From Chiloscyllium plagiosum (lineage: Eukaryota): a DNA stretch of 64,000 nucleotides. This document shows positions 4,968 to 59,139 of this stretch, in pieces. Below the pieces are notes generated by a model. It did no database searches and had not been told where the DNA came from. It saw nothing but the letters and a program-made list of their open reading frames with translations. Made by a program: the position numbers and the translations under genes. Within the stretch, counting starts at the first letter, position 1; each line of letters opens with the position of its first letter. The stretch lies in contig NC_057719.1 in the NCBI RefSeq assembly GCF_004010195.1, forward strand, positions 24,107,933 through 24,171,932, written 5' to 3'.

Positions 4968-6748
4968 CTAAATAGGGTAAAAAGGTAATGGTTGAAAACA
5001 GTATGATTTAACATTTGACGATAGATACGGCAAATGAGATCTCCAAATCTAGTTCTAATATTATCAATCTTAGATTTAGCCATTCGATTCCTCCATATTA
5101 TACCATGAATACCACTTTGTACATCCCTTCTACATATCTCTTCCAATTTCATATCTCTGTGTACGCAATCTGACACTCATTTTGCTACTACTAAATGCAT
5201 ATACTTAAGATTTTCTCTACTCCAACGCCATGTCACGTATACCAAATCAACATTCCCTTCTTTCCCACTCCTTTGCAACCTCCTTTCCCACAGTCTCTGT
5301 TTTACACTACACTTATCCCTAGTTTCTCTCTGGCCAAAGTATACAAGAGTACTGATCTTGGATACCAAGTCATTCACCACTCATAAATAGGGTGCCATTA
5401 TCTACGCCACTATCAATTGCACCTTCTCTCCACACTGTGTAGCAGGTTGAGGCCCTCCCAGATGTTCCATCTAGTTTCATGTGAATGCTTTTCCTAAATG
5501 CTTAAATTCCATTGATCAGTGCATATTAAGTATTACTGAAGAGGATTTATCCTAGTAACATTGCTGCAATATAATACTTCACATTGAGAATCATCCTCCT
5601 GCTAATATGGTGGCATATTTAAATTCATTTGACTACATATGTACAACAATGAATATGATTAAAATTGGTAAGCAAGTTTATTATCAACTACCAAACAATG
5701 GAAACAAAACCAAACAAATTAGCTCATACTCTAACTAGAGAAACATAACTCAACAATTTTTGAATTAGCTAAAATTAGAATGGAAGTACTGCTTGTTCTG
5801 TTTCAGTTCTGAAATTATTATTGCAACAGGAAAGATACTACACTTGTCGTGGTTCATTTTACTTTCGAGTATTAAATAAGTAACTTAAAAATAGGAAACA
5901 TTTTGGAAATAGCACTATAATATAATTAGGTTCAAAGCAAGATTTGAAAAAATGTGTTAAAGCATAAATACAAGAATCCAATAAGAATGGGATTCTAAGT
6001 CAAATAAAATAAAGATACATTAATTATTGAGATGATGGAAAATGGGAATATTTACAAAGACTAAAAATTGTCATGTGGATGCAAATAAGGCCAAAAGGAT
6101 AGATGTGAATGCTGACGAACTATGTAAGAATGGCAAAATTAATTAAAACTGGAAATAAAAAAAATTCTTGGCACTTGCAGGGCAATAATGAAATATCTAT
6201 GATATATAAAAGAAAGTCCACAAAAAAGGAGAATAGAAAACTGAGAATGCATTTGAAAATAAAAATAGGGAGGAGAGCAGAAACTAAGCATTGATAAAAA
6301 TACCTTTTTATAGTAAAAAGATAGCCATGATATAGTTAATTTAGAATTAATGTAGGCAAGTTTAGTGTGGATATACAGAATAGCGGAAAAAGTAATTACT
6401 TGCCTTTGTTTCCAGAGGTGATGGACATTGGGATTACAGAACCAGAGGTGGATGTACATCAGTCAGTAGAGGATAGATATTTTATAAAAACAAATGATAC
6501 AAAACAAATCACTCAGTTTTAATCCAAACAAATCCGAGTAAGAACCAAAGTTCCAACAATATTTTATGATAAAATGCTGAGAAAAAAAATTGTCAAAATA
6601 TTTTATCTTGCACTCATCAGGACGATTCTTGAATATCACCAATGCAAAGGGAAATAACATTTATACTATATGAGAGGAATGTGGCTATTTGATTGGCAAA
6701 TTAACTCTGATTGGCAGAGACATTGTCATGAAGAATGCATCAGTTAAT

Positions 6749-6888
6749 AAAGTTAAAAATCACACAACACCAGGTTTATTTGGAAGCACTAGTTTTTGGA
6801 GCACTGCTCCTTCATCAGGTGGTTTTGGAGTATAATCTACAACCACCTGATGAAGTAGCACCCCAGTCCAACACCGGCATCTCCAAAC
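6749..6888. mobile_element. PLE-derived fold-back insertion (hammerhead family A), internally deleted
   Basis: TSD catcagttaat at 6738-6748 and 6889-6899; same ends as the 24262 and 56091 copies; inverted cttcatcaggtggtt / aaccacctgatgaag. Confidence 0.8.
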
Positions 6889-8100
6889 CATCAGTTAATG
6901 GTGACAGTCAACTGCCAAGCTTTGTTTAGATATTGAATCACCAACTGGTCAAAGAATTGCCCTTAGAAATGAACCAGAGAATTGCTATCAGCTATTCTGG
7001 ATTGAAACAGATGGTGTCTGTGTGTACATTTTCTTTCAGACTGTAAAGAATAATGGCCTATCTATTAACATATCGGACTTCTACCAGAGGCAAGTGCCTC
7101 CCATTTGAGCTTGCCATTCAGTTAGACCATGACTGAGCTACACCTTAACTCCATTTAACTGCTTCTCTCTATAGCCCAGGTTACAGTTACTGTACCAGTG
7201 TGTGAGAGAGCGTGCATGTGAGAGAGAGTGTGTGAGTGTTGTCTAATTGAAATTCCACTTTTCCACTAAAATGGAATAAATATCTTTCACCTTTAATCCT
7301 GAATGTCGTAGTCTACATTTGAACATTATGCCTTCTTGTTCAGGATTCTCCTATTAGAGGATTTGGCTTCCCTTTATTTATCCTAATGAATCGCTGAATA
7401 ATTGTATGATACCAATTAAATTAACCCTCTCTTCCCTCAAAACCTTTTAAACTCAAAGGAACACAGACTGAGTAAGCAGTATATCCTTATACTTTGGTCT
7501 CCAAAGTACTGGCATCATTCTAGTGAATCTGTAAAGCACTATAAAGAGGTTTTGGAAGTCCAAGTGCAGTAAACAAATCTTTTAAAAGTAACAGGCAAGT
7601 ACAGGAAAATAACTTGAAGACAAATGAAATGTTGGCCTTTATAAAATCAACTCTGTTCAAATAAAGGGGAAAAAGTTATGATTCAGAATCTAAGTCCTAC
7701 ATTATTTGAGCACGATGTTTAATTTTGACACTGCAGCTCAAGAATTATATCCTGCCCTGTAGGCAATGCATCACAAATTTGTGAGGATAATATTAGGGCT
7801 CAGAGGGTTAAGTTAAGATTTCATAAACTTGTCTATATTTCTGTTGAACCCTTTCAAGGTGAACGCATCTTTCTAGAGGTCATTGCACAATGCACAATAC
7901 TTGGCTGTCGGAAGATGAGTGAACAAGGACAACAGAAAATAGTTAAATCAGTCGCTAAAAATTGACATCAAAAGTAAAAGGTAGGTTGGAAAAAAATTAA
8001 GAGTGAAGAAAACAAAAAAGAAACCTCTATTTGGCACATATGTTTTATACAAATTGTTAAAAATGGAGGTAAAAAACTAAATTAAACTTACTAAATTTAC

Positions 8101-23970: not shown

Positions 23971-24261
23971 GTGACTCTCCTTGTTAGGTGAAAGCTTGCA
24001 AAGAGTGGAATTTCACTGATGGAAGGAGGATTTTCTTTCTCTTTGAGGGTTGAGAGTTTTTTGAAGTCCGTGCCTCAGATAGCTACAGGGATAGAATACT
24101 TGTGTATATTTATGGCTGAGATAGATAGATTCTTGATCAGTAGGGGAATCAAGGATTACATGGAAAGTAGACATGAGGAACGTCAAATCAGTTATGATGC
24201 TATTGACTGGCAGAGCAGGCACAATAGGCCACATGACCTACTCCTACTCATAGTTCTTATG

Positions 24262-24460
24262 ATTTGGAGGTGCCGGTGTTGGACTGGGGTGTACAAAGTT
24301 ACAAATCACACAACACCAGGTTATAGTCCAACAGGTTTAATTGGAAGCACTAGCTTTCGGAGCGCCGCTCCTTCACCTGATGAAGGAGCGGCGCTCTGAA
24401 AGCTAGTGCTTCCAATTAAACCTGTTGGAGTATAACATGGTGTTGTATGATTTGTAGCTT
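24262..24460. mobile_element. PLE-derived fold-back insertion (hammerhead family A)
   Basis: Arms 24296-24375 and 24381-24460 (5 mismatches); near-perfect TSD cata(g/t)ttcttatg at 24249-24261 and 24461-24473; inserted in the tail of a CR1 fragment (~23990-24480). Confidence 0.9.
24374..24408 (+). ncRNA. Minimal type I hammerhead ribozyme motif
   Basis: CAC-CUGAUGA-A-GGAGC-GGC-GCUCU-GAAA-GCUA-GUG: helix I CAC/GUG, helix II, palindromic AGCU in place of helix III, CUA cleavage triplet; activity not shown. Confidence 0.75.
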
Positions 24461-25239
24461 CATATTTCTTATGGTCTTGGAGCCTAATCTGATATCCTAG
24501 ATAGCACAAATTTTTCACATGTAAGTCAGAGCTGGTAGCTGATGGCTGCAGCTTGCTAAATGCTCATCCTGGCCATCATCCACTTTGGCTTCAGTGTAAT
24601 GGCTCTGCCACCATCATTCTTGACCTTTGGCCATACAAGTCAGCAGCAGCAAGCCACCAGCATCACCACACCATCATGCCTGTTCTCCAACCAATGCAGA
24701 CACTTCAAACCTACAACACTCAGGGACTCCAAGAATGTGCACTTGAACCAGGTCATCTTGCATACAGGGACACATACATCATCTCATGCAGCAACACAGG
24801 TTCTTAGTTGATTTTCTTAACACTCACTCATTTTGCGCTTACTTAGAGATGACGAATCTCTGTATGCTTCACTGAATGAGAAGCAGGCAGCTTTCCACAG
24901 TGGCAAGAACTGAACAAGAACAAAATATTCAAGGGGGGTGGAACATGTAACTGCATGGCACTCTGCAACATCAATATCTCACATGCAGCATGAGCAAACA
25001 GCTTACACAGTAAATATAATACATGCACTTCAGGAAAACGGCCACGTCTGAAAGGTAAAGTTGTACAGTCTTCAAAGGGGCCAAGGAAGACTACAGTCAA
25101 GTCAAGGGATACAACCATAATCAGTCAAGACAGTTTCCTGATTTCAGTCCAGGGCATTAGGTACAGTAGAGAGACCAAACAGCTGTCTAAGAGCCCAGGG
25201 ATCTGTGTTGTTTCAGACAGACAGGGGATTGAGACACAG

Positions 25240-44258: not shown

Positions 44259-44361
44259 TCTAATTTTGGGTACCACTCTTCGAATTGTCTCTGAGGTGTT
44301 CTGCCGCATCAGGTTTGGTAGATTAACAACAACACTGGTTCGCTGCACATCTTGACCAGAA
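44259..44361 (-). CDS. PPP4R4: PPP4R4 coding exon (~exon 3), 103 bp, phase 2 to 0
   Basis: ttttgtttgcag|T TCT GGT CAA...AAA ATT AGA|gtaagt; translates SGQDVQRTSVVVNLPNLMRQNTSETIRRVVPKIR, matching recalled human AGQDVQGTSVIANLPFLMRQNPTETLRRVLPKVR. Confidence 0.95.
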
Positions 44362-44584
44362 CTGCAAACAAAACAACTGCACTTAAACCTGCAAACTGAG
44401 CATCAGGCAGATAATGCAAAAGCAGATTTTGTGTGTGTGTTTACACAGACGAGCACATAGATGAGGTTAAATATGTTAACTCCTGTTGAAAACAGACATC
44501 TTATAACATAGCACACTGTTGATTGACAAACACATCAAATAGTAAACATTTTTAAAACTATAGGTTAATTAGTCAGCTGATCAA

Positions 44585-45440: not shown

Positions 45441-46069
45441 ACAACTTCTCTGCATTTATCTTCAAATTCAGCAGGGTCAACCTACTAGCAATTTGTTTCA
45501 GATAAAGTTTAACATTAAAAACTATATAAATGATCAACAGCTGCATATTATCTTCTTGAGAACATTAACGTTGTGCTCTGTACTAACTCTCCTAAAAGTA
45601 AACTGCAAACCCTAAATATTCAAAATGAAAACAAATACTGAAAATACATTTACAAATGACCATTGGCTACTTAAAAAGAAAAACTACTTGTTAAACACTT
45701 CATGGAGCTATTAACATTTTTAGTAATACTTAACCTCATTGAAGTGTCAATGCAATTAATGAGTTTCAGCATCCAATCATTAGCATTAACTGTTTCTTAG
45801 AATGTTTCCTCCTGTGGCAATAGGGACTAGTAGCGATTAAAATGGAAAGTTCTGGATGCGGACATGAATGGTTAGCTCAAAATCTAAATACCCAAGTCTC
45901 TGCTTGTTGGTCTCAGAATATAGAATTAATAATACTGTTGAAAATACACACTTGCCAACATTTGCCTAAGCAAAATAATCTCAGAAACAGAAAGAAGAAA
46001 AGATTTGCAAACACAAGGGACGCTATTCAGTCCCTTTGGATAACTCTCTGCTGCTGAGAGTTATCCAAA

Positions 46070-46219
46070 GTCAAAAATCACACAACACTGGATTATAGTC
46101 CAACAGGTTTTGGAGTCCTGCTTTTGGAGTCCTGCTCCTTCTTCCTTTCTGTTGAACTATAGCCCAGTGTCATGTGATTTTTGACTTTGTCCACCCCAGT
46201 CCATTACCGGCACATCGAA
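46070..46219. mobile_element. PLE-derived fold-back insertion (family A), hammerhead core lost
   Basis: caaagtcaaaaatcaca...tgtgatttttgactttg + tail tccaccccagtcc; TSD agt(t/c)atccaaa at 46059-46069 and 46220-46230. Confidence 0.8.
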
Positions 46220-46814
46220 AGTCATCCAAACTCTCTTTCTTCCAGCTCTTGCCCCATTGATTACAAACTTCAAGTCCAAATCCATTTTTAAAAAAATTCA
46301 ATGAGGGGTTCTGTCTTCACTGCTATTTTGGATGATGAGTTCCAGGCACTCAACACACTTTGGTTGAAAAAAAATTCACCAGCTCCCCCCGACACATCTC
46401 TTTACCAATTACTTTAAACATATGCTCCAATAAATGGCCTCTCAGATAATGGAAATAATTCTTTCCTATCCACCCTAGTTAGGTCCTTACAATTTTCTGC
46501 ATTTCAATTGAGAGTCTCCCCAGCCTTCCCTGTTCCAAAGGAAACAAAATCCTACTTATCTAATCTTTCTTTGCAGTTAAAATTTTCAATCCCTGCCAAC
46601 ATCTTTGTAAATCTCTTCTGTACTCTCGAATTGATTACATCCTTTGCAGTAACTAAAACTGTACTCGGAATTCTAATTTGTGTTTTATGCATGTCCAGCA
46701 TAGCCTTCTCGCTCAGATAACTCCAGATCTCAGCCAATAAAACAAAGTATTAAAACATTTTCTTGACCTACAGCCTATCTACCAATCCGCGTACCTTCAT
46801 GAATCTGTGGACTG

Positions 46815-47915: not shown

Positions 47916-47975
47916 CTTTGCTCCATCTGTTTATGTATACATTTTTGACATACTCGTATCAATTCTGCATTCTCT

Positions 47976-49355
47976 TCAGGTTGTAAGCTTGCTCGCTGAG
48001 CTGGAAGGTTTCTTTTCAGACGTTTCACCATCATACTAGGTAACATTATCAGTGAGCCTCTGGTGAAGCGCTAGTATTGTGTCCCACTTTCTATTTATAT
48101 GTCTTGGTTTCTGAAGGTGGGTGATATCATTTCTGGTTCCTTTTCTCAGAGGATGGTAGGTGGGGTCCAAATTGACATGTTTATTGATGGAGTGCCGGTT
48201 GGAATGCCAGGCCTCCAGGAATTCTCGTGCATGTCTCTGTTTAGCTTGTCCAAGAATGGATGTGTTGTCCCAGTCAAAGTGGTGTCCTTCTTCGTCTATA
48301 TATAAGGATACTAGTGATAGTGGATCATGTCTTTTGGTGACTAGTTGGTGTTCATGTATCCTGGTGGCTAGTTTTCTGCTGTTCGTCTGTTATTACAAAA
48401 GAAGAGGAGAATAACAACAGACTCCCATTCCTAGATGTCACAGTAGAACAACCAGTTAATGGTGAACTTCAAACCAACATCTACAGGAAAACAACACACA
48501 CAGACCAATACTTAACTACAGAAGCAATCATCCCAACACCCACAAACAGAGCTGTATCAGGACATTATTTCACCAAGCCACAACACACTGCAGCACCCAG
48601 GATGTACAAACAGCAAAGGAAAAATACCTATTCAGCATATTCAAAAAGAACAGGTACCCAAAACACAGTCCACTGATTTCTCAATAACAAACTCAAACAA
48701 GCAGACACAACATGCCCAGAAATTCTAGTTGCATTACCTTACATCAAAAACATATCAGAAATTACTTCCAGACTACTCAGACCTTTTGGCATCATGGTAG
48801 CCCACAAACCTACAACACACTTAAACAGCGACTAATGAACCTAAAGGATCAGATACAAACAACCAGCAAAGCTAATGTCCTTTACAAAATACCATGCAAG
48901 GACTGTAACAAATAGTAAATCAGAAAAACAGGCAGCAAACTAGCCACCAGGATACATGAACACTAACTAGCCACCAAAAGACATGACCCACTATCACTAG
49001 TATCCTTATATACAGACGGAGAAGGACACCAGTTTGACTGGAACAACACATCTATCCTAGGGCAAGCTAAACAAAGACATGCACGAGAATTCCGAGAGAC
49101 CTGGCATTCTAACCAGAATTCCATCAATAAACACATCAATTTGTACCCCGTCTACCATCCTCTGAGAAAAAGAACTGGAAATGATATCACCCACTTTAAG
49201 AAACCAAAACACAAACAGAAAGCAGGACATAACACCAGCACTTCACCAGATGCTCACTGATAGTACTTAGTGTGGTGATAAAACATCTGAAAACAAACCT
49301 TCCAGCTGCAAGCAAATCTACAACCAGAAGCTAAGCTACAAATCTTCTCAAAAAT
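47976..49355 (+). mobile_element. Penelope element, 5'-truncated, with inverted 3'-end copy (47976-48388, minus strand)
   Basis: EEENNNRLPFLDV..IYRKTTHTD (RT C-terminus/thumb), NVLYKIPCKDC..TG.KLATRIHEH (GIY-YIG); left 0.4 kb is the reverse complement of the 3' end; decayed hammerhead at ~48016-48056 (minus: tca-ctgataa...gaaa-cgtc-tga). Confidence 0.9.
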
Positions 49356-49516: not shown

Positions 49517-49620
49517 AATAAAAACAGAATTTGCTGGAAAAAGCTCAGCAGATCTGGCAGCATCTATGGAGAGAAATCAGAGTTAAGGTTTCAGGTCCAG
49601 GGACCCTTCCTCAGAACCCA
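49517..49620 (-). mobile_element. PLE 3'-end fragment (family B) with hammerhead-like motif at 49582-49617
   Basis: Minus strand GUU-CUGAGGA-AGGGUC-CCUG-GACCU-GAAA-CCUU-AAC; helix III palindrome apparently mutated (ACCU for ACGU). Confidence 0.7.
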
Positions 49621-53922: not shown

Positions 53923-55580
53923 AACCACCTAATTTTATTAAATCTGAGCTGTGCTTTAAATCTTCCAGATATTTTAAGAGTCTGGGATTTCTCTCTCCAG
54001 AACATATATTTCCCACTCAAGAGGTATATACAAAGTGGGTCACTTAAGTTGTAAAAGAAATAATTAAATGAGACAATTTACTAATTTGACAAAATCTAGC
54101 AACAGAAATTAACAAGCAATGGTCTTAAAGTGGAGGAGTATATGACTATCCCATCCAATCTCCAAATCAAAGGCTCATGCCCTTGCATACTTACAATTCA
54201 GTGCAGCAGCTATGAAGGATGGTCTTCCAGTTCGAGCTATGAAATGTGTTTTTGAAATCAAAAAGCTCATGTGACACTTTAAGTGCCTTTGTCTGAAAGC
54301 ATTCACTTCATTGATATGACAAGAAGACAACTAGTGTGCACAACATAACAGTAATGCTTGCTTGAACAATGAAAGTCCTGCTGAAGGGCAGCAAATTGAA
54401 GCTATATGGGTAGTATTATGGAATCACAGAGGCTGGCAACCTCCAAGTAAGCACAAAATGAGTGAGTGCTGAGGAAGCAAGCTAAGAGTCATAATATGCA
54501 TCCTGTGTAGATGTACACGTGGCCCTGCATGCAAAGTGGCCTGCCAGATGCGTACAAATCTAGGATGATCCTGAGCTCCAAAGTGAAGTGTTGAAGAGCT
54601 GATATAGTGCTTGAGTTGGTGCAACAGCGGGCGGGTGATGTGAAAGGCTTGCAGCGTGTCACTGATGACATGTGGATGAAGAGTGGAAGGGGATGGTGGC
54701 CAAAGACAATGCAGGGACAATATGGTGAAGACAGAGTTGCATGATGTCCAGAACAAGCAATTGCCGAGCTCCAGCCATCAGTCTGACTTGTATGTTGGGA
54801 ATTTGCACCATCTAGTCTCTCAGGGAAGGAGAGGAAAACTGAAAGTTGTGCATAAACAAGGTGAGCTCTTAATGAGACGCAGATACATTGGAACAGGGTG
54901 GTCACCACTTATTACTGAGATTTTGAAATTACCATTGGAAATTTAAGGGATCCTGAGTCATTTCACCTTCTCTGTACTTTCCCAAATTTCCAACCATTGC
55001 CCATGCCACACCAGGGAAGGGAAAATTCCACGCTTATTTTTTTAAATGGCTAACAATTAAAAAAAGAATATCACCAGTAAATAATGTGTGGATGCTTTTC
55101 AATTATCATTGACAAGCTACAGAAGTATTAGATCAAGCAATGGCATATAAAGTGCAAGGAAAAATAAAGTAAAACAGCAGATGCAACCCGGTGTTTCACT
55201 GCACCCACACTTCTTCATGCACTATTTGTTGACCAAAAAGATGGACAATTCAACTTGTCCCAACTCCCTTGCTAAGTCCAATTTATAGGCTATAAATGAG
55301 TAATTAACAGCAAATATGGTTCACTGTGTCACAATTTCACTTTATAGATGCAGTTTGGAAGTATGCCACACATTAACCTATTGACTTCTACAGCATAACG
55401 CTCAAAAATATAGACAAGGCTGAGTCAGTTTACTGGAAATTACAGTCCATGCAAAGTGGAGTTCAAATCCAGGCTGATAAAATAGAAATTTCTTCTCATG
55501 ATTATGCAGTTAACAAAAGCAGTTAGGTGTGTAGAGGTAGTACGGTAGAGCTGTCAATTTCTAATAAATGTGAAATTTAT

Positions 55581-55928
55581 TCACAGAATCTCTACAGTGT
55601 AGAAACAGGCCCTTCGGCCCAACAAGTCCACACCAACCCTCCAAACAGTAACTACCCAGACCCATTCCCCTACCCTATAACTCTACATTTACCCCTGACT
55701 AATGCACCTAACCCACATATCCCTGAAGACTATGGGCAATTTAGTATGGCCAATTCACTTAACCTGCACATCTTTGGACTATGGGAGGAAATCAGAGCAC
55801 TCAGAGGAAATCCACGCAGACAGAGGGAGAATGTGCAAACTCCACACAGACAGTTGCCCGAGGCTGGAATTGATCCCATGTTCCTTGCGCTGTGAGGCAG
55901 CAGTGCTAACCACTGAGCCACCATTCCG
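55581..55928 (-). mobile_element. HE1-type SINE
   Basis: Same head, core and tail as the other copies. Confidence 0.9.
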
Positions 55929-56143
55929 CTCAACCTTTATTCAGAAAGGTTGAGAGATTTATGAAACATTCACAAAAGTGAGTAATGGGTTGGAGTTGGT
56001 GGAGGATGGTATGGGGGGTTGGGGTTGGTGATGGTTAGGGACAGCAATGATGAAAGAACATACTGTCAAACCGAAAATAACAAACAATTCAGTTAAAAAT
56101 CACACAACACCAGGTTATAGTCCAACAGGTTTAATTGGAAGCA

Positions 56144-56178
56144 CACTAGCTTTCAGAGCAACGCTCCTTCATCAGGTG
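56144..56178 (-). ncRNA. Minimal type I hammerhead ribozyme motif (sense to PPP4R4 pre-mRNA)
   Basis: CAC-CUGAUGA-A-GGAGC-GUU-GCUCU-GAAA-GCUA-GUG. Confidence 0.75.
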
Positions 56179-56272
56179 ATAGTAGAGGGCTCAATCCCAA
56201 CACAGAATTTATAGCAAAACTTTATAGCAAAAATTGCTATAAATTCTGTGTTGGGATTGAGCCCTCCACTAT

Positions 56273-56307
56273 CACCTGATGAAGGAGCGTCGCTCCGAAA
56301 GCTAGTG
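56273..56307 (+). ncRNA. Minimal type I hammerhead ribozyme motif
   Basis: CAC-CUGAUGA-A-GGAGC-GUC-GCUCC-GAAA-GCUA-GUG; predicted cleavage after A56304. Confidence 0.8.
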
Positions 56308-58570
56308 TGCTTCCAATTAAACCTGTTGGACTATAACCTGGTGTTGTGTGATTTTTAACTTTGTCCACCCCAGTCCAACACCGGTATCTCCAAATCATGA
56401 ATACAATTCAGAAAAGACCCAAAAGTAAAATTATGAACAAACAAAATAATTTTCGTTGTTACAACGAAAAATTACGTCCACCTGCACTTCGTATTAGGTG
56501 AAGCAGTGACATGGGGAAAATAGGATTGAGCCCAACCATGATCGATTGTAAACTTCAAATGCAATAAAATCTGGAATTGGAAGCTAGCCTAATGGTTGGT
56601 TGTTATACAAAAAGAAGGTTCAGTAATGTTCCTTAGGGAAGGAAATCTACCATCCTTACCCAATCTTGCATATATGTGACTCCAGATGCAAAACTTTGGC
56701 TAACTCTTTTCTGCCCTCCAAAATGAAGAAGTTTCAAGAAGATAAGAGATGGGATTTTTGGCTTAATTACGAGAAGATTCAGACTTTGAATGGACTAGGA
56801 GGCCTCTATAGTATTAGTTGCCTAGAAATCCTAGTTGGACCGAGAATTCTGATTTACAGACCCAAGGTTCAAGTAAAGATGATACCCTGAAACTGCAAGA
56901 GTTGCTCTTAAAATCCCAACTTAGTACAAGTCCCTGGGAACCTCTAAGAGTATTTCAAACTACCTGGTAAAACTTTAAAACACAATCATAGTTTTTTCTT
57001 AAGACCTGAATTCAAGTTGGTTGGAATCCGAACTATCATCAATCTTCAACGGATAGCAATTAAGCTTCATTGAGAGAGTAGACATGACAACTCATTAAAT
57101 TCTATCCTTTGTTTTTTGAGGAGAAAGTCCTTTTTCCCCTACTCTTTATGCCCAAAAAAATCTCTGCAGAGACTTGTCTCATGTTTTATGAATGCGTCTG
57201 TGTACAAAACTAAGGCAATAGAATTTTAATTTTGGATCACAGTTTAGGAATTAGCCAGTGTTTGCCACTGAATAAGTGTTTTTTTCCACAATAAACAGGC
57301 TATTTTCAGTTAACTAAAGAAGCCTGCTGGATGTTTATTTTAATCTGCAAAGTATTACAAACCAGATCATTTTAATAATTGACTCAACACATATATAGTA
57401 ATGGTGCGATGGTGTAGTTGGGCTCAATTATCAGTGGACTCTTGCCATCACAGTCATAACATAGCTTGGGGGCTTGGAACAACTTGACAGACAGCAGATT
57501 CATAACACTAAACCTTTCCACCATCACCCCCATAAACTCAAGGAGGAAGAGTGAAAGGAAGACAAGTACCTGGGGTAAGGAAGGGACAGATAGGAATACC
57601 CCAAGAATTCCTCCTCAGACTGGAAAGGAAGGTGCTGAGGGTAGGAATAAAAAAATCAAAGGCCAAAGTGTTTCTGCCTCATTTACTCTAATAAAGTGGT
57701 ACACCTTTATTTAGAATGCTTAAAGTTGCAATTGAAACCTATTGGGATTTGTACAAATGATTCCAACAGAAGAGACCAACATGAAAAGCATCAAGTTGTA
57801 GCTATAACTGCAAGACCAAAGGTAGATACTGCAGGAGAGGAGAATAAGCTATTTCTATTGGCTTTTCTATTTTTATTTCTTTCACAATTTTCTCCTGCAT
57901 CTGTAAGAACAGTGAAATCATAATTTATGACGAGTCTGCTTATTTAACAGATAATTTTAACAACTTCAATATTTTATTTCTTGATCTTCAGTATCTGGCA
58001 AAGTAGGCCGTTTTCCTCCCTTTGTCTCCCTATGACTAGTACTTAGCCAGTACAGACACAATGGGTCGAATGGCCTCTTTCTTTACTGTAAAATTCTATG
58101 ATTATTTGTGGGATAGTTGATACACTTAGCTTTTAAACTTAAACACAAGTTAGTGGAAATGTACATTTGAACATTTCATAAGTCTACAATAGTTCACAAC
58201 ATTTCTAGTGTTTAGTCAAGCACAAAGAAGCTGCAGCATACAATATTCAATTGGTTAGATCCCCATGACTTCCCCTTTAAGCACCAGCATAAAAGTTCAC
58301 ATCATATCATTCAAAGGCTCTTAACAAATCATCAAACAAATAGCTATAACAAACTGGAACATCCTGTGACTTGATTTTTAACCAAAACAGGTGTTCTTCT
58401 AAAGTATTTTGTTAAATTATTTCTAATGTCAATTAAAATGTCATATTTTCCACTTACACATTATTTAACTTTTATAAACTTACTCAGTCTCAATATCATG
58501 CAACATTGTTCATGGATAGCCAAAAGCACCCAGAATTAGAGATAACTGTACATAACCTGCAAACTGATTT

Positions 58571-58890
58571 TAGATTAGATTAGATTCCGTACAGTGTGGA
58601 AACAGGCCCTTCGGCCCAACAAGTCCACACCGACCCTCCGAAGAGTAACCCACCCAGACCCATTCGCCTACTCTATGTTTACCAATGCACCTAACACTAT
58701 GGGCAATTTAGCATGGCCACTTCACCTGATCTGCACATCTTTGGACTGTGGGAGGAAACTGGAGCACCCGGAGGAAACCCATGCAGACATGGGGAGAATT
58801 TACAAACTCCACACAGACAGTCGCCCAAGGCAGGAATCGAACCCGGGTGCCTAGTACTGTGAGGCAGCAGTGCTAACCACTGAGCCCCCA
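58571..58890 (-). mobile_element. HE1-type SINE
   Basis: (tagat)n tail, core and reverse-complement head. Confidence 0.9.
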
Positions 58891-59139
58891 TTTGTCGAGA
58901 GTTTTGTGTATACATACCCCAGACATCTCTACTGTCTAATTCCAAAGTATTGACATAAAAATATATTAAAAATTGATACTGGGAAACGACAACAACATTA
59001 TCTTTCTTTAGTAGCTAGGTAAATCAATCATCATAGTCAACTATTTATAAAGTAAATTAAGCTTCAAGGAACACTTAGTGTCAGGTAAGTATTAATTGAT
59101 AAGTGACATGTGGTACTTCGTTTTTGTTTGGATGAAACA

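Follow-up and report, generated by a model that had tools for sequence, protein, structure and literature searches.

According to the accessible part of Arkhipova et al. (2013; PMC3846280), insertions of Penelope-like elements (PLEs) may consist of 5'-truncated pLTRs inverted head-to-head, with a palindrome at the junction, a tail of 31 bp and a target-site duplication (TSD) of 8–10 bp, and the PLE proteins act in trans on pLTR sequences. A tail of 30–40 bp, found at one end only, is also given in the accessible parts of Craig et al. (2021; PMC8557442) and of PMC8969392, and it corresponds to the distance between two reverse-transcription starts in the part of Frangieh et al. (2024; PMC11167929) that could be accessed. 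PLE hammerheads were described by Cervera and de la Pena (2014; PMC4209133), where, in the portion available, the consensus is NNN CUGANGAH GNNNNN...NNNNNC GAAAN NU H NNN, the extra nucleotide (H) being conserved. The same portion reports opposite-strand hammerhead pairs lying 100–700 bp apart in Schistosoma, as well as monomers that did not cleave and dimers that cleaved weakly. The ribozyme of PAc is stated to cleave only with protein (PMC11167929, accessible part), and the role of PLE hammerheads is still presented as open in the available text of PMC8557442 and PMC11167929. The locus analyzed here lies in a stretch of DNA of 64,000 nt from a bamboo/epaulette-type shark, hereafter the window. 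Most likely, this locus represents the dead, 5'-truncated insertion of a Penelope-like retrotransposon, in which, according to the predicted fold, a hairpin keeps the hammerhead motif locked.

The geometry reported in a preliminary description of this DNA was recovered, i.e., two arms of 127 nt each that are 98% complementary with three mismatches, a spacer of 16 nt, and a flanking repeat of 9 nt (Table 1). The mismatches (56155/56296, 56160/56291 and 56184/56267) originate from three C-to-T transitions, all of them in the left arm when read in the ribozyme sense and two of them at CpG, and they appear as A-C on the plus strand and as G-U on the minus strand. As had been claimed, the minus strand was predicted to fold into an unbroken stem, at –253.5 kcal/mol compared with –230.6 kcal/mol for the plus strand. 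The z-scores of the folds were –34 and –37 and none of 100 shuffled sequences was equally stable. Since any transition yields a G-U pair on one of the strands, three G-U pairs on the same strand are expected by chance in 1 case out of 4, and this pattern is therefore at chance level. The spacer is probably derived from the element because its minus strand repeats TTTTGCTATAAA, with which the arm begins; it would represent a stutter at the inversion junction. The most diagnostic feature of the insert is a one-sided tail of 39–42 nt, which had not been noticed before: 42 nt separate the right arm from the right TSD and have no counterpart on the left side.

Table 1. Features of the hairpin locus and related features in the window (positions are those of the window).
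Feature	Position	Strand	Basis and remarks
Second family copy	6738..6899		TSD of 11 nt, fold-back, internal deletion in the right arm, partial right tail, decayed core
Third family copy	24254..24473		8-nt TSD, fold-back inside the hammerhead, left tail
Most upstream PPP4R4 exon in the window	44259..44363	-	Hairpin about 11.7 kb upstream of this exon
Fourth family copy	46042..46236		8-nt TSD, fold-back past the core, right tail
Left TSD ACAATTCAG	56084..56092		Repeat match; empty site in organism C
Left arm, probable inverted 5'-truncated pLTR copy without tail	56091..56217	- (PPP4R4 sense)	First 2 nt overlap the TSD
Poly(A) hexamer ATTAAA, left arm	56130..56135	- (PPP4R4 sense)	Predicted unpaired probability <=0.003
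Minimal hammerhead motif, left arm	56144..56178	-	C11.1>U (G-U closing pair) and loop change
Spacer at the fold-back point, 16 nt	56218..56233		Minus strand repeats TTTTGCTATAAA, the starting motif of the arm
Right arm, probable 5'-truncated pLTR copy	56234..56360	+	Inverted-repeat and family comparison
Minimal type I hammerhead motif, right arm	56273..56307	+	Descriptor; fits the consensus of PMC4209133 Fig. S3
Poly(A) signal	56316..56356	+	Hexamer ATTAAA at 56316-56321 (family variant AATAAA), GU-rich stretch downstream
One-sided tail	56361..56402	+	39 nt (to 56399) with a 12-nt TSD; 42 nt with a 9-nt TSD
Right TSD ACAATTCAG	56403..56411		Repeat match; probably 56400-56411

Public data were then mapped on positions 55930–56800 at 90% likeness, covering 4 of the 24 listed runs. 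The hairpin is an insertion. Indeed, one contig of 443 nt from organism C joins 56081 directly to 56400, and contigs spanning the junctions between flank and element showed a filled site in organisms A and B. The match of the two 9-mers, which taken alone is modestly unlikely in A-rich windows (1078 of 20000 shuffles), is thus a real duplication by virtue of the empty site. The sequence skipped in organism C amounts to 318 nt, one below the offset of 319 nt between the 9-mers. This suggests a TSD of 12 nt (left copy probably 56082–56092) that lost one base in its left copy and would fit a tail of 39 nt. The insertion measures 307–310 nt between the target-site duplications. At the locus, A and B differed at 15 of 637 nt (2.4%) and A and C at 19 of 582 nt (3.3%). 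The divergence between the arms (3/127, 2.4%) falls within this range, as expected for unconstrained decay since insertion, a comparison that has little power with three differences only. The empty site dates the insertion between two species splits, and dated inserts of this family are usable as phylogenetic markers.

The family matched 59,259–75,426 contigs per DNA run. Summed contig depth reached 6–10 million at 56320–56379 compared with 13–24 on the unique flank, a quantity that is no copy number according to the warning of the tool; the depth ratio and the density of copies in the window suggest, as a crude estimate, a copy number of the order of 10^5. Loose ends of contigs clustered at 56361–56364, at the mirror position 56092 and at 56382, and those of RNA at 56398. 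Fold-back joints were present in the public contigs (15 listed, 908 further), at points that vary. The window itself holds three more family copies (Table 1), which likewise go beyond the preliminary description. All four copies are arranged head-to-head, with the 5' ends meeting centrally and the 3' ends outward, each has a flanking repeat of 8–12 nt and a one-sided tail, which lies on the left in one copy and on the right in the three others, and the fold-back point is different in every one of them. The tail of the hairpin is common to the three other copies, being partly deleted in the copy at 6.7 kb, and the third copy has a complete hammerhead core on the plus strand at 24374–24408.

A relaxed descriptor of the minimal hammerhead gave four matches in the 64-kb window, two of which are the cores of the hairpin, whereas 40 sequences simulated from a Markov model averaged 0.05 matches per 64 kb. 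Both motifs comprise a helix I of 3 bp (CAC/GUG), a helix II of 5 bp and a palindromic AGCU that replaces helix III. The plus-strand motif is CAC CUGAUGA A GGAGC GUC GCUCC GAAA GC UA GUG, with a predicted cut 3' of A56304. An intact core had been reported on each strand. This holds for the plus strand, where the closing pair of helix II, G10.1-C11.1, is kept (G56284-C56296), but the minus-strand core is slightly decayed, the C>T change at 56155 having left a G10.1-U11.1 wobble instead of the consensus G-C. The additional A between CUGAUGA and helix II, earlier regarded as a departure from the canonical core, is position H of the PLE consensus CUGANGAH (PMC4209133, accessible part). Besides, pairs of cores on opposite strands were already described in Schistosoma (PMC4209133), and the arrangement follows from the usual head-to-head inversion. 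A hammerhead search of the kind suggested earlier recovered both cores with the descriptor but gave no match to the Rfam hammerhead covariance models up to an E-value of 10 (positions 55000–57500 and 56250–56335), as would be expected for a form devoid of helix III.

Forcing the hammerhead within the full hairpin was predicted to cost 61 (plus strand) or 66 (minus strand) kcal/mol, with a helix II probability of 1e-13 to 1e-17. These predictions agree with the former proposal that the ribozyme is sequestered by its own antisense. Such locking of the motif inside the hairpin would be no peculiarity of this copy, because the geometry of every such insert imposes it. Cleavage of hammerheads as dimers has reportedly been described by Lunse et al. 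The two motifs of the hairpin stand on opposite strands and hence cannot form a dimer within one transcript. For the isolated cores, a misfolded dimer was predicted at –30.3 kcal/mol compared with –16.3 kcal/mol for the active dimer frame.

The RNA sample comprised about 2% of one single-cell poly(A) run from organism A, a type of data that samples introns poorly; from the library type, first mates were presumably oligo-dT primed. The 2,088 matched reads lay inside the element, save for a trace in another repeat at 56620–56679. In this sample none of them reached the unique sequence next to the element, so that they describe the family and not the copy of the PPP4R4 locus. Loose poly(A) started after 56333 in 288 reads and after 56336 in 337 reads, and a mirror poly(T) stood before 56115 in 111 reads. 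Poly(A) addition thus occurs 12–15 nt after ATTAAA and just ahead of the GU-rich stretch, where the reference is not A-rich. Poly(A) sites are typically laid out in this order, with the hexamer first, then poly(A) addition and then a GU-rich stretch. It was also observed that the family RNAs are polyadenylated about 30 nt after the predicted hammerhead cut. The family reads run through this cut (depth of 791 upstream and 937 around it), and no pile-up of read ends was listed there in this one poly(A) run. Uncleaved family RNA thus exists. This does not imply an absence of cleavage, since a cleavage product of 30 nt would escape such a poly(A) library. Upstream of 56234, 122 reads continue into further shared sequence. 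A TATA-like promoter had been considered for GCTATAAAT at 56236–56244 and was rejected, as the template of the hairpin copy must reach upstream of the start that it predicts. The A>G differences listed within the element are family variants that recur in DNA contigs, and they give no basis for calling A-to-I editing.

Nine exons of PPP4R4 were matched on the minus strand of the window, from 2676 to 44363, one of them 100% identical to Chiloscyllium and Hemiscyllium PPP4R4, which confirms the strand previously assigned to this gene. An Atlas look-up of a PPP4R4 exon gave no usable match. Since the window from 44.4 to 64 kb yielded no upstream (N-terminal) exon, and the nearest exon lies about 11.7 kb downstream, the hairpin sits in a PPP4R4 intron, and the host pre-mRNA is the strand with the G-U pairs. 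A possible splice acceptor at 56374 was also seen, with a score of only 1.5 in a crude matrix.

The anatomy of the insert strongly supports membership in the PLE class, and sequence does so indirectly. Both the layout and the motif fit the published PLE pattern, in line with the origin from a PLE terminal repeat put forward in the preliminary description. Among metagenome records, a degenerate pattern of the core matched two contigs, L001 and L002, and both carry PLE coding fragments. In L001, a reverse transcriptase fragment (RVT_1, E 1.5e-5, below the curated cut-off) lies head-to-head with the motif-bearing arm. In L002, an ORF of GIY-YIG type with a CX3CxxC linker precedes the motif by about 750 nt on the same strand, and AATAAA stands behind the hammerhead core. 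This ORF had no Pfam match of its own and no relative in viral contigs, its label being based on visible motifs and on the homologues P0002 (GIY-YIG, E 0.0086, below cut-off) and P0003. The latter, an RT-EN protein, matches both L001 (49%) and L002 (47%). The likeness of the two contigs to the hairpin is imposed by the search pattern within the core; outside it, likeness is weak downstream (33/2000 shuffles) and absent upstream (320/2000), so that L001 and L002 represent a different family from that of the shark hairpin. The linker of L002 gives a Neptune-like clade as a lead only.

The shark parent element, in which the arm would be joined to an RT/GIY-YIG ORF, did not turn up in the following searches. 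P0002 and P0003 had no match in the window, nor had a 17-nt motif taken from the upstream loose end. The right arm has an open frame of 40 aa, to which no longer protein corresponded, although this is weak evidence. DNA patterns derived from the arm gave no match in viral contigs or in the first metagenome scan, and a single match in a bacterial genome was discarded as a 20-nt chance match inside unrelated sequence.

The following course of events may be proposed for the insert. By analogy with PAc, a PLE protein would have nicked AT-rich DNA with a staggered cut, giving rise to the TSD, and reverse transcription would have started from two internal positions separated by about 40 nt (56361 and ~56399), giving rise to the one-sided tail. 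As may be transposed from Arkhipova et al. (2013), synthesis would then have halted once about 130 nt had been made, and a fold-back or self-priming at TTTTGCTATAAA would have produced the inverted second arm. The hammerhead and the poly(A) signal would be passengers from the terminal repeat of the parent. In the host pre-mRNA, the antisense arm would be transcribed first on either strand and both motifs would zip into the 127-bp duplex while emerging. The copy would then not cleave, because the antisense arm, made first, pairs each motif as it is transcribed. The hairpin copy is an ordinary repeat, which probably has no selected role and probably is no gene switch.

Other origins and a function for the hairpin were weighed against this reading. 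The insert may belong to a non-autonomous PLE-derived element that lost its ORF, whose short terminal-repeat transcripts are copied in trans and fold back anew at each insertion. This proposal differs from a truncated PLE insertion only in the nature of the parent. It could account for the missing parent ORF (as judged from the arm frame and from P0002/P0003 in the window) and for the roughly tenfold fall of summed contig depth from 56260–56289 to 56230–56259, and it agrees with the action of PLE proteins in trans on pLTR sequences (PMC3846280, accessible part). The fall in depth, however, may stem from divergence between subfamilies, given the threshold of 90%, and the 122 RNA reads running upstream of 56234 show that longer forms exist, which leaves a non-autonomous parent rather doubtful. 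A DNA transposase origin, in which the insert would be a MITE, i.e., a class II element with terminal inverted repeats, agrees with a short, palindromic, TSD-flanked and abundant sequence. Such an element is contradicted by the variable fold-back point, arm length and centre differing in all four copies, and besides by the asymmetric ends with their one-sided tail, by the TSD length ranging over 8–12 nt and by a hammerhead consensus that is that of PLEs; a MITE is therefore extremely unlikely. We give almost no credence to a microRNA precursor. Rfam miRNA models did match the hairpin, the best being MIR6140 at 97 bits, but none of the 15 matches reached the gathering score, the matching models came from many unrelated families, and the alignments reflect likeness in pairing and not in sequence.

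A function in the host would require that the hairpin be kept as a duplex of the PPP4R4 pre-mRNA, silencing the ribozyme, feeding Dicer or ADAR and regulating the host gene. The unbroken duplex of 127 bp predicted on the PPP4R4 strand, the predicted pairing of both core and hexamer, and the filled site in two organisms (A and B) are compatible with this idea. Nevertheless, the insert is absent from organism C, the divergence of the arms is at the neutral level with a G-U bias expected in 1 case out of 4, and three similar hairpins lie in introns of the same gene. Moreover, the RNA sample gave no evidence of Dicer or ADAR use: none of its 2,088 reads fell on unique sequence next to the element, and DNA contigs show the A>G differences as well. 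Incidental editing would not prove function. Regulation of PPP4R4 by the hairpin thus appears very improbable, and a dead PLE insertion is retained.

A more general proposal can be built on the terminal repeat of such insertions, namely that it is a coupled hammerhead and poly(A) module, both motifs of which are masked on both strands by the fold-back, making hairpin copies self-neutralizing. We consider this improbable at present, although worth stating. If true, a working poly(A) site would stand some 30 nt beyond the cut, with about 25 nt left to the end of the element; cleavage would remove the tail from the element RNA, and RNA polyadenylated at this site would be devoid of the starting points of reverse transcription. 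Introns would then tolerate hairpin copies whichever way these are oriented, and the huge number of copies in shark genes could be explained in this manner. In the accessible part of PMC4209133, AAUAAA or AUUAAA directly follows the cut in 11 of the 56 rows of Fig. S3 (manual count, no control). No report of a poly(A) signal tied to PLE hammerheads was found among the listed papers of the open literature, and a word search of PMC2377424 gave no poly(A)-hammerhead coupling. The locus itself is of little weight, as one of probably ~10^5 relics by a crude estimate, and the shark family may well be catalogued already in repeat databases. Its analysis documents in a shark the PLE hammerhead together with the hairpin-plus-tail insertion pattern. 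Besides, a poly(A) site just behind the predicted cut provides a testable idea for the role of PLE hammerheads, as well as a way to test if intronic fold-back copies evade selection.

The locus can finally be compared with known systems. Non-LTR retrozymes (bioRxiv 10.64898/2026.07.22.740005) are likewise non-coding, PLE-related and endowed with a type I hammerhead. However, they are head-to-tail tandem units with at least two ribozymes on the same strand, whereas the hairpin has one motif per strand in inverted arrangement; in the absence of tandem same-strand units, a retrozyme was ruled out. PAc (Poseidon, Anolis carolinensis, PMC11167929) has in common with the shark family two 3' termini that define the tail and an AT-rich target, and in neither case do RNA reads end at the hammerhead cut. 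The ORF of PAc starts at helix II, whereas in the shark hairpin the ATG of the core meets a stop after 8 codons, and the CX3CxxC linker of L002 points to Neptune and not to Poseidon, the clade of PAc. The minimal hammerheads of PLEs (Cervera and de la Pena, 2014; PMC4209133) share the extra nucleotide and the palindrome with the hairpin, and the GAAA-G-C-U-H junction of the latter is also that of Chrysemys in Fig. S3. Cartilaginous fish are absent from the 56 rows of that figure, in contrast to the shark hairpin described here. In every anatomical test, the hairpin proved to be a truncated fold-back PLE insertion, akin to the complex insertions of EN+ PLEs (PMC3846280, PMC8557442). Compared with these, both halves of the shark hairpin are truncated within the terminal repeat with no ORF left; its family is far more abundant than the rotifer PLE families, and its parent ORF has not been seen. 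The two share the head-to-head arrangement, the repeat or palindrome at the junction, a one-sided tail of 30–40 nt, a TSD of 8–10 nt or slightly more, and a hammerhead in the terminal repeat.

The family of the hairpin element in the PPP4R4 intron probably varies at its tail. At position 56382, numerous contigs, drawn from all three DNA runs, diverge from the reference and continue in one common sequence, which suggests a subfamily whose tail ends differently. In the reference, the last bases of the tail are ATG. Besides, the arm end and tail start (56349–56373) resemble a branch point, a pyrimidine tract and an AG acceptor, with a crude score of just 1.5. In the fourth copy of the family, 17 extra nucleotides (46050–46066) separate the left target-site duplication (TSD) from the arm. 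These include target sequence in inverted copy, as if target DNA had been folded back on itself.

The window also holds other repeats (see table). A SINE-like repeat, presumably of the shark HE1 type, is present in two copies in the window (55585–55925 and 58582–58892; 85–92% alike), the first stopping about 160 nt left of the 56 kb element. A PLE-like insertion unrelated to this element lies at 47975–48920. The Atlas matches of its GIY-YIG-like frame are largely without name, GIY-YIG accounting for 11% in one cluster, and a Pfam search of the frame returned no match. A plus-strand frame of this insertion (48341–48673) is one that we take to be RT-thumb-like. The hammerhead motif of the third family combines a CUGAGGA core with a helix I of 5 bp and a helix II of 6 bp.

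Features of other families in the window
Feature	Position	Strand	Basis or remark
Minimal-hammerhead motif, third family	49580–49619	minus	descriptor search of the window
Inverted repeat, second PLE-like insertion	47974–48389 / 48921–49330		arms 417 nt, 85% alike
GIY-YIG-like frame, second PLE-like insertion	48039–48389	minus	Atlas matches
Decayed hammerhead-like motif, end of second PLE-like insertion	near 48020–48055

Rearrangements were also seen in the two metagenome contigs matched by the hammerhead pattern. In L002, the stretch that codes for the linker of the PLE recurs in inverted orientation within the 3' region of the element (1–109 and 983–1091). L001 (374–1050) carries an RT fragment joined head-to-head to this 3' region.

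In the family RNA reads, poly(A) is found 12–15 nt past ATTAAA/AATAAA (window 56316–56336), beginning about 30 nt downstream of the predicted ribozyme cut. L002 holds an AATAAA at a position similar to that of the shark family hexamer. Among the 56 published PLE hammerhead rows in Fig. S3 of PMC4209133, 11 contain a hexamer of the ATTAAA/AATAAA type, by a manual count with no control.
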